The position numbers and the translations under genes are program-made. A stretch of 64,000 nt of DNA from sequence record MN850615.1; one strand, 5' to 3'. The stretch comes from Escherichia phage kvi. The notes beneath the pieces were generated by a model. It saw nothing but the letters and a program-made list of their open reading frames with translations, ran no database searches and had not been told where the DNA came from. Shown here piece by piece: positions 55,521 to 55,937 of this stretch. The first letter of the stretch is position 1, and every line of letters starts with the position of its first letter.

Positions 55521-55937
55521 TTAGAGAGATTCGGTAAAGGTACGAGCGATAACATCACGCTGCTGGTCTGGAGTCAGACTATTGAAGCGCACTGCGTAAC
55601 CAGAAACGCGAATTGTAAGCTGCGGGTACTTCTCAGGATGTTCAACAGCGTCCAGAAGAAGATCGCGACTCATCACATTGATATTCGCGTGCTGACCACC
55701 TTCGACAACCGGAGCACCATTATCTACAATGACAGGACGGAAGCTAGTTGTGTGCAGTGCCAGCGAATCGACGTCTTCGGCGGTGATCACATGGTCTTCT
55801 GCGAAAGTTTTACTAACAATTACTTTAGCGCCGATCAGTGCTTTCGGTTCGGATACCAGAATCATAGGCGCGAAGTGTCCACCAATAATAGTACCTTTAT
55901 GCTCACCTTTCATGATTTGAATTGCTTTAAATTCCAT
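55521..55937 (-). CDS. grcA: autonomous glycyl radical cofactor, GrcA/YfiD-like
   Basis: 138 aa; C-terminal ~60 aa nearly identical to E. coli GrcA as recalled (EGGQH.N.NV…[38 protein letters not shown]); N-terminus divergent; GAGGTGA RBS. Confidence 0.85.

Follow-up and report, generated by a model that had tools for sequence, protein, structure and literature searches.

What would a bacteriophage do with a small protein whose C-terminal half closely resembles a host glycyl-radical protein, and from where would that half have come? This question is raised by an ORF of Escherichia phage kvi (sequence record MN850615.1), of which a stretch of 64,000 nucleotides was analysed (the window, to whose first letter all positions below refer). 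The ORF is real: the ORF listing has it on the minus strand, at 55521..55937, with 138 codons and an ATG start. A preliminary description made from the DNA alone had proposed it without giving its strand, and the peptide strings quoted there are found in its translation. By comparison with related phages (discussed below), the gene is vs.6, and it is flanked as follows.

55521..55937, minus strand: vs.6 coding sequence, 138 aa plus stop (ORF listing; PHROG 1209; identity to RB49 and G2248 vs.6)
55942..55947, minus strand: Shine–Dalgarno sequence GAGGTG, 4 nt 5′ of the vs.6 ATG (direct reading)
55948..56564, minus strand: genes 5′ of vs.6, a 41-aa ORF and vs.8 (ORF listing, RB49 annotation)
55477..55511, minus strand: intrinsic terminator with a 10-bp stem, a 5-nt loop and a T-run, 10 nt past the vs.6 stop (terminator scan)
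54736..55434, minus strand: nrdC.11, an RlaP-type nucleotidyltransferase, the 3′ neighbour of vs.6 (Pfam PF10127)

The gene was thought to have its own ribosome-binding site and a strong terminator, and both are present. The GAGGTG sequence just ahead of the ATG is kept in every Krischvirus allele compared, while the terminator hairpin (55511..55487) has a folding energy of −15.6 kcal/mol and a z-score of −4.2 in RNA folding, and is marked as a terminator in the annotation of G2248 as well. The gap between the 41-aa ORF and the vs.6 ATG is 10 nt only and a search of it revealed no consensus promoter; the 41-aa ORF and vs.8 are probably co-transcribed with vs.6. An ORF of 174 aa on the opposite strand (55449..55973, plus strand, TTG start) was rejected as a shadow of the vs.6 frame, and no annotated genome has a gene there.

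The protein can be divided into two halves of different character, the second of which contains the predicted radical site.

55707..55937, minus strand: N-terminal domain of vs.6, aa 1–77, phage-specific (BLASTP against the T2 N-terminus; alignment A1)
55524..55706, minus strand: C-terminal glycyl-radical domain, aa 78–138, equivalent to PflB 699–759 and YfiD 67–127 (PF01228, identity to GrcA and PflB, structure matches)
55596..55610, minus strand: RVSGY motif, residues 110–114 (direct reading)
55601..55599, minus strand: predicted radical site Gly113, codon GGT, equivalent to PflB Gly734 (direct reading, alignment A1)

Pfam Gly_radical (PF01228) matches the protein with E = 2e-16, and PHROG 1209 matches it over its full length (residues 3–138 against profile positions 1–121 of 121, E = 1.4e-49). 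The top NCBIfam match is the GrcA model TIGR04365 (E = 3.4e-37), over residues 37–138 only. Its 127.5 bits fall short of the curated cutoff (170), and so do the scores of T4 Y06I (153.3) and RB49 vs.6 (132.4), E. coli GrcA itself scoring 234. The label of bacterial GrcA equivalog is not applied to vs.6 because of this score. The PFL model TIGR01255, membership of which implies a full-length enzyme of ~760 aa with catalytic Cys418/Cys419, is matched at profile positions 683–744 only with 85.5 bits (cutoff 994), so that vs.6 is not a PFL and the 'pyruvate formate-lyase' names that it bears in GenBank are over-annotations. It is a stand-alone protein of 138 aa without the PFL catalytic barrel, PflB being matched over residues 698–759 only.

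Structural comparisons agree with this picture. By sequence, the protein matches the PDB entries 6owr (YfiD, E = 1.5e-31) and, over PFL residues 698–759, 1h16. An AF2 model computed from a 39-sequence alignment has a mean pLDDT of 76.9, and Foldseek matches 52–60 residues of its C-terminus to 6owr (E = 4.5e-6) and to PFL structures 1cm5/2pfl (rmsd of 2.8 Å over 52 columns). The N-terminal region is modelled with several β-strands and one helix (pLDDT 77–87, prediction only), for which Foldseek returned no significant fold match. None of the 39 homologues in alignment A1 departs from R110, S112, G113 or Y114, and further positions of the C-terminus are invariant too. Homologues are found in 1580 phage records, among them those of T4-like, T5-like, Aeromonas and jumbo Serratia phages.

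The window is 96–97% identical in nucleotide sequence to the Krischviruses RB49, G2248, ECD7 and their relatives. It is collinear with RB49, and the ORF corresponds to RB49 vs.6 (RB49p099), with an identity of 96–98% to vs.6 of RB49 and G2248. The RB49 gene lies in the same position and the N-terminal 77 aa of its product are identical to those of kvi. In both RB49 and T2/T4, vs.6 has the same neighbourhood (a lysis gene, vs.7/vs.8, vs.6, regB, vs.1, vs and tk.4). T4 vs.6, the product of which is known as Y06I, shares with kvi vs.6 this neighbourhood, PHROG 1209, a homologous N-domain (QI..G.HKGTI ... IVSKTF.ED) and the same C-terminal PFL-type radical module, with an overall identity of 56%. 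When the N-terminal halves of kvi and T2 vs.6 are compared alone, BLASTP still aligns them (E = 5e-9, 43% identity). There are differences nonetheless, since kvi vs.6 is 18 aa longer than T4 vs.6, with a 12-aa insertion in its N-domain, the 3′ halves of kvi and T2 vs.6 share no more than 73% of their nucleotides, and kvi vs.6 is known from sequence alone while T4 Y06I has been studied biochemically. Judged from this evidence, kvi vs.6 is the orthologue of T4 vs.6. Its match to PHROG 1209, its homologous N-domain and its synteny together place it in the phage vs.6/Y06I family rather than in the bacterial GrcA equivalog, although in function it would be a spare part of GrcA type. Synteny with T4/T2 and the shared phage-specific N-terminal domain likewise argue that vs.6 is an old phage gene.

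Neither the gene nor its type of function is new, since T4 Y06I was described in 2001 and RB49 vs.6 was recognized as a Gly_radical ORF in 2006. According to the account in PMC8683613, Knappe and co-workers (Wagner et al. 2001, BBRC 285:456) found that PFL activase activates both YfiD and T4 Y06I, and the same account has the two proteins restoring the activity of oxygen-cleaved PFL. In a later comparison of T4-like genomes, vs.6 was one of a small number of T4 ORFs conserved throughout, with a Gly_radical match in six of six genomes (Nolan et al. 2006; PMC1524935). A 2026 review gives formate lyases as the only glycyl-radical enzymes for which spare parts have been identified (PMC13450708).

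The preliminary description had called the product a phage-encoded, GrcA/YfiD-like glycyl-radical spare part. The Gly_radical domain, the top match to TIGR04365 and the similarity to 6owr bear this out, for a function already familiar from T4 Y06I. It had also contrasted an 'almost identical' C-terminus of ~60 residues with a divergent N-terminal half. The C-terminus is indeed host-like: of the last 61 residues, 85% are identical to GrcA, and over 104 aa BLASTP finds 63% identity to the GrcA of E. coli K-12. The wording was slightly generous, T4/T2 vs.6 reaching 98% in those 61 residues. The divergence of the N-terminal half was correctly seen: BLASTP of aa 1–77 alone gives no alignment to the N-terminus of GrcA, although the full-length alignment extends back to residue 37 (A.xIVxKxxxAED). 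Such a difference between the two halves is to be expected from the organization of GrcA itself, of which one half is structured and the other disordered. In YfiD, residues 61–127 are structured with the fold of PFL 693–759, while residues 1–60 are disordered and yet help the protein to bind cleaved PFL and to receive the radical (PMC8683613). Like kvi vs.6, E. coli GrcA (YfiD, 6owr) is a stand-alone protein, of ~130 aa; its radical glycine belongs to the same motif, and its C-terminal module has the same predicted fold. Its N-terminus is, however, disordered, whereas the N-terminal half of kvi vs.6 is predicted to be β-structured, and the two genes have diverged to saturation at the nucleotide level. 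Against PflB 699–759, the last 61 residues of vs.6 show 77% identity and 95% similarity. In contrast to PflB, vs.6 has no catalytic barrel (~700 residues in PflB) and could thus act in trans only. The ~60-aa radical module of vs.6 is also found in the short forms GrcA2/GrcA3 (NF008341, NF038360) and in 'acetyltransferase-related' proteins of T5-like phages, from both of which, unlike vs.6, most of the N-terminal region is absent. The tail of the T5-like and IMG/VR versions is of the PflB type (TKEQQQDVITRTFTQSM) and not of the GrcA type.

What could such a protein do for the phage? Orthology, domain architecture, motif conservation, synteny and gene age are established here, and by analogy with Y06I it is very probable that kvi vs.6, as the Krischvirus orthologue of T4 vs.6, is a spare-part glycyl-radical protein for host PFL with the same activity. 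The scenario would be the following. During infection, a glycyl radical would be placed on Gly113 by PflA, the radical-SAM enzyme that serves the host as PFL activase. The 61-residue C-terminal module, a copy of PflB 699–759, would then dock into PFL that oxygen has cleaved at Gly734, with the phage-specific N-terminal domain aiding binding and activation. PFL activity would thereby return, converting pyruvate and CoA to acetyl-CoA and formate. The presumed benefit would be a fermentative ATP supply maintained during the shut-off of host expression and under fluctuating oxygen, and the supply of formate for formate-type class III ribonucleotide reductases (RNRs) such as NrdD would probably be kept up too. 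The details of binding may differ, since the N-terminal half of kvi vs.6 does not resemble that of bacterial GrcA and a fold is predicted for it. In addition, the kvi allele has five substitutions in the region of the first β-strand, among them Ala84 in place of a Leu found in nearly all homologues, and these may bear on docking. A role of this kind fits the view that T4-like coliphages sustain the anaerobic energy metabolism of their host under fluctuating oxygen, for example in the gut, an upkeep that would probably include formate for NrdD.

The N-terminal domain also lends itself to a different interpretation, in which vs.6 would act through it as a decoy or modulator of host PFL or of PFL activase, damping or redirecting fermentation rather than restoring it. 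It is true that Krischviruses swap the radical module freely and yet hardly vary in the N-terminal 70 aa of the protein, that the folded N-domain in the AF2 model has no known fold match, and that Ala84 of kvi alters a nearly invariant strand residue. However, the radical glycine and its surrounding residues are strictly conserved, the dN/dS of the C-terminal module against grcA and pflB is low (~0.07–0.09), and T4 Y06I has been found to bring PFL back to activity in vitro (PMC8683613), all of which makes this interpretation very improbable.

A second client had been considered as well. Two further genes of the window were reported to encode a glycyl-radical enzyme and its activase, and both assignments are upheld by Pfam.

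37524..39386, minus strand: NrdD, class III ribonucleotide reductase (PF13597, E = 1e-175)
35612..36121, minus strand: NrdG-like radical-SAM activase (PF13353 (Fer4_12), E = 2.4e-43, and PF04055 (Radical_SAM))

From their presence it had been suggested that vs.6 might repair the phage NrdD, which would make it an NrdG-activated spare part replacing an oxygen-cleaved C-terminal fragment of the reductase. Both partners are encoded by the phage, RVSGY surrounds the radical glycine in both proteins, and spare parts for further glycyl-radical enzymes are conceivable according to reviews (PMC8683613). The resemblance goes no further. The C-terminal end of kvi NrdD reads ...CHVCGSTKEMRATESGFVCPDCGNDNLEKMNVIRRVSGYLGSVDLRPFNHGKHSEMVNRVKHM, and when this protein and vs.6 are aligned on the glycine there are 9 identities in 64 positions, five of which are RVSGY itself, so that vs.6 does not correspond to an NrdD fragment. 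BLASTP between the two gives no significant match, and a Cys4 zinc ribbon that precedes the glycyl loop of NrdD is missing from vs.6. The C-terminus of vs.6 is instead 77% identical to PflB 699–759 and T4 Y06I works with PFL and its activase, as far as PMC8683613 describes it. From these comparisons the module of vs.6 appears to copy the tail of PFL and not that of NrdD, and the sequence evidence speaks against NrdD as a client, which makes such a role very improbable. A metabolic link to NrdD is more plausible than a physical one: class III RNRs of the formate type draw their reducing power overall from formate (PMC11226230), and PFL restored by vs.6 could supply it to the reductase.

The preferred reading of vs.6 as a spare part for PFL leaves the question of where its host-like module comes from. 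The preliminary description took the combination of a host-like C-terminus and a divergent N-terminus as a sign of relatively recent capture of, or recombination with, a host gene, which would make the 3′ half a recent acquisition from host grcA or pflB. Identity of 85% at the protein level over 61 residues invites this idea, the 3′ half has a slightly higher GC3 (0.459) than the phage on average (0.381), and the process is real elsewhere, as shown by T4 vs.6 with its single mismatch to grcA over ~177 nt and by 629 phage records that are 95–99% identical to the 3′ end of grcA. In kvi, however, the nucleotide sequence contradicts it. The last 61 codons of vs.6 (183 nt) were aligned codon by codon for identity, dS and dN. 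Against E. coli grcA, identity is 74.3% overall and 46% at third positions, 23 of the 52 conserved degenerate residues use the identical codon (18.5 expected by chance), and NG86 estimates are 1.88 for dS and 0.126 for dN. Against E. coli pflB, the corresponding values are 73.2% and 46%, 22 of 46 identical codons (16.6 expected by chance), a dS of 1.74 and a dN of 0.162.

No better donor was found among bacteria, either in 5426 complete E. coli genomes or among the best 80 of at least 573 confirmed loci in GTDB species representatives. In the former, BLASTN yields matches of 60–80% only, the best of them to pflB and not to grcA (74–75% over 185 nt). In the latter, which are mostly grcA or pflB genes from Enterobacterales, Vibrionales and Pasteurellales, identity to the 3′ half does not exceed 77.6% overall and 52.5% at third positions. 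Foreign composition was considered as evidence of capture and discarded, since a GC3 of 0.459 is no outlier among the 61-codon windows of kvi itself (0.381 ± 0.067, with 12% of windows as high). As a control, kvi nrdD is comparably diverged from host nrdD (66.6% identity).

A comparison of the 3′ half with grcA at the nucleotide level had been proposed at the outset, with divergence to be read as the mark of an ancient phage gene, and that is the outcome. Recent capture of the kvi 3′ half is thus refuted, on these alignments, for sequenced donors, and for this phage it is hardly credible. The conservation of the C-terminus appears instead to reflect purifying selection to fit host PFL and its activase. 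Where a short module is under strong structural constraint, a close match to the host at the protein level cannot be taken as a sign of recent transfer.

The scenario of recombination with host grcA does hold for T4-type phages. In T4 vs.6, the ~177 nt that begin at the EGGQH codons and end shortly ahead of the stop differ from K-12 grcA at one position only, and T2 vs.6 carries such a tract too. Over the last 186 nt of T4 vs.6, identity to E. coli grcA is 97.8%, while the 5′ half of the gene does not resemble grcA meaningfully in nucleotide sequence. In T2, the dS to grcA over the last 61 codons of vs.6 is 0.118 and the GC3 of the 5′ half is 0.19. The 3′ half of T4 vs.6 therefore has the appearance of a recent mosaic, and kvi vs.6 provides a clean contrast to these phages, whose module is near-identical to grcA at the DNA level. 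A further 312 phage records, mostly of Klebsiella phages, are 80–90% identical to the 3′ end of grcA. No papers were found on a nucleotide-level mosaic of T4 vs.6 and grcA or on an endonuclease beside vs.6, although the literature covered was limited and this is not proof of novelty.

A different kind of mosaicism is apparent within the genus of kvi, where the N-terminal 70 residues of vs.6 are nearly invariant and the C-terminal module exists in several versions that differ widely (alignment A1). It is seen on the smallest scale in the comparison of kvi with RB49.

55656..55689, minus strand: 34-nt mosaic patch, aa 83–94 (RB49/G2248 alignment)

No fewer than 16 of the 22 mismatches between the kvi and RB49 genes are packed into these 34 nt, a density (16 mismatches in 45 nt) far from the background of 2.85% (Fisher p = 3.6e-14), and the patch is among the two densest mismatch clusters in an 8.6-kb alignment of the two phages. 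From kvi to RB49, the changes are A84L, M89L, S90L, D92E and L93M. Among 50,697 phage records, the patch is common to kvi and G2248 only. An exact 24-mer of it is absent from IMG/VR, and no exact donor was found in either collection. The protein-based scan of IMG/VR returned 9 loci only. The metagenomic alleles P0001 and P0004 carry the protein motif of the patch (HANINVM), with ~10 nt different within the patch in P0004.

On a larger scale, the Krischviruses phiS, JK32 and pEJ01 and the metagenomic P0004 have a wholly different 3′ half of vs.6 and an adjoining HNH endonuclease gene. The part that encodes the N-terminus is 96–100% identical in nucleotide sequence across Krischviruses. Wherever the 3′ half is divergent (pEJ01, JK32, phiS and the metagenomic loci L020 and L022), a NUMOD4-HNH gene of 175–200 codons stands between vs.6 and nrdC.11, where kvi has no endonuclease gene. 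In these endonuclease-linked genomes, the 5′ 200–250 nt of vs.6 are 96–100% identical to kvi and nrdC.11 is 94–100% identical from its first codon, but identity falls to 48–76% over the 3′ 170–220 nt of vs.6. Divergence confined to the 3′ half is the pattern expected if the endonuclease targets this half and is inherited together with a presumably resistant allele. The kvi patch is similar, although not identical, to the endonuclease-linked alleles.

From these observations it is possible to propose, tentatively, that the 34-nt patch marks the recognition or cleavage site of the NUMOD4-HNH protein, a free-standing homing endonuclease, that the endonuclease-free kvi allele may be a conversion product resistant to cleavage, and that the radical module evolves in this genus mainly by endonuclease-driven gene conversion from phage to phage. 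If this were true, vs.6 would be a previously undescribed homing site and one small module would be exchanged by two routes, as T-even phages refresh theirs from host grcA instead. The stronger version of this idea, in which the 3′ half is patterned mainly as a homing-endonuclease target and the protein is dispensable cargo, can point to the NUMOD4-HNH gene directly downstream in all divergent-3′ Krischvirus alleles, but is scarcely tenable given that the ORF is intact and the radical-site residues are invariant in every allele, that most of the 1580 phage records, from several families, lack this endonuclease, and that targeting accounts for mosaicism and not for the upkeep of a reading frame.

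As a spare part for PFL, kvi vs.6 is ordinary for a T4-like coliphage and adds little to what is known, phage proteins of this kind having been recognized since 2001 and a copy being annotated in RB49-type genomes. Its value for follow-up lies only in the endonuclease-linked mosaicism, which makes the 3′ half of vs.6 a recombination hotspot tied to a neighbouring homing endonuclease and worth pursuing, and in the contrast to the host-derived tracts of T-even phages.

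Judged from their sequences, the vs.6 genes of T4 and T2 are recent mosaics with host grcA, and the comparison was made over the following regions.

T4 (locus L018), 575-760: 3' half of vs.6
T2 (locus L004), 4175-4360: 3' half of vs.6
E. coli K-12 (locus L002), 14426-14611: 3' end of grcA

The last 186 nt of T4 vs.6 are 97.8% identical to E. coli K-12 grcA, with a single mismatch over a stretch of ~177 nt, while meaningful nucleotide similarity to grcA is absent from the 5' half of the same gene. For T2, dS against E. coli grcA over the last 61 codons is 0.118, and GC3 in the 5' half is 0.19. 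The 3' end of E. coli grcA is matched at 95-99% identity in 629 phage records and at 80-90% in a further 312, mostly from Klebsiella phages. No description of the T4/T2 mosaic with host grcA was found in the literature searched.

In sister Krischviruses (pEJ01, JK32 and phiS) and in metagenomic contigs, a NUMOD4-HNH homing-endonuclease gene lies between vs.6 and nrdC.11, in the regions listed here.

L017, 863-1211: NUMOD4-HNH region
L020 (metagenomic), 1322-1849: NUMOD4-HNH region
L021, 2965-3558: NUMOD4-HNH region
L022 (metagenomic), 1077-1679: NUMOD4-HNH region
L024, 3001-3528: NUMOD4-HNH region

The Krischvirus genomes bearing this gene are exactly those in which the 3' half of vs.6 is strongly divergent (48-76% at the nucleotide level), embedded in flanking DNA that is 94-100% identical. 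This co-occurrence points to vs.6 as the target of the endonuclease, and to co-conversion driven by it. Between the endolysin gene and vs.8, a second gene, of the HNH-AP2 type, is present in JK32 and phiS. The window has neither the NUMOD4-HNH gene in its vs.6/nrdC.11 gap nor HNH-AP2 in its endolysin/vs.8 gap.

Comparison of the window with RB49 revealed local mismatch clusters, one of them within vs.6 itself.

55656-55689, minus strand: 34-nt vs.6 patch
~60045-60090: 17 mismatches per 45 nt
~57825-57870: 12 mismatches per 45 nt
~54587-54632: 11 mismatches per 45 nt

The patch holds 16 of the 22 mismatches between the two vs.6 genes and causes five amino-acid changes, including Ala84, a position occupied by Leu in nearly all homologues. 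Among 50,697 phage records it is common to the window and phage G2248 only, and its exact donor was not found by an exact 24-mer search of IMG/VR. Since further clusters stand out from a background of 2.85%, patchy mosaicism is common in the early-gene region around vs.6.

The N-terminal domain of the protein is nearly unvarying across Krischviruses.

55707-55937, minus strand: vs.6 N-terminal domain, residues 1-77

AlphaFold2 predicts a beta-rich fold for these residues with moderate confidence (pLDDT 77-87), for which no significant PDB match was obtained, whereas the N-terminus of E. coli YfiD is disordered by NMR (PMC8683613).

Some shorter phage homologues (IMG/VR contigs L010, L011 and L012, and T5-like records) have a PflB-type tail (…TKEQQQDVITRTFTQSM) in place of a GrcA-type one, which suggests an independent origin of the spare part from pflB in these lineages. 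In the 33.7-kb record of Escherichia phage vB_EcoM-569R5 (ON470599.1), a segment annotated as pyruvate formate-lyase matches the 3' end of E. coli pflB at 100% identity; this is probably host sequence, the 'phage' record being short or partial, and not a phage spare-part gene.

Just upstream of nrdC.11 lies a candidate promoter that overlaps part of the vs.6 terminator, namely its descending arm and its T-run.

55465-55493, minus strand: candidate sigma-70-like promoter (TTGGCT, 17-nt spacer, TATGAT, extended -10 TG)

By Pfam, nrdC.11 (54736-55434, minus strand) encodes an RlaP-type nucleotidyltransferase; in several phage records GenBank labels it 'thioredoxin' or 'glutaredoxin nrdC', and vs.6 is variously 'pyruvate formate-lyase' or 'hypothetical protein', all of which are annotation inconsistencies. 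An enterobacterial-type grcA in an assembly labelled Vagococcus (L037, a contig of Vagococcus sp. WN89Y) may reflect contamination or mislabelling, and another is borne by a 276-kb plasmid of Klebsiella sp. WOUb02 (L033).
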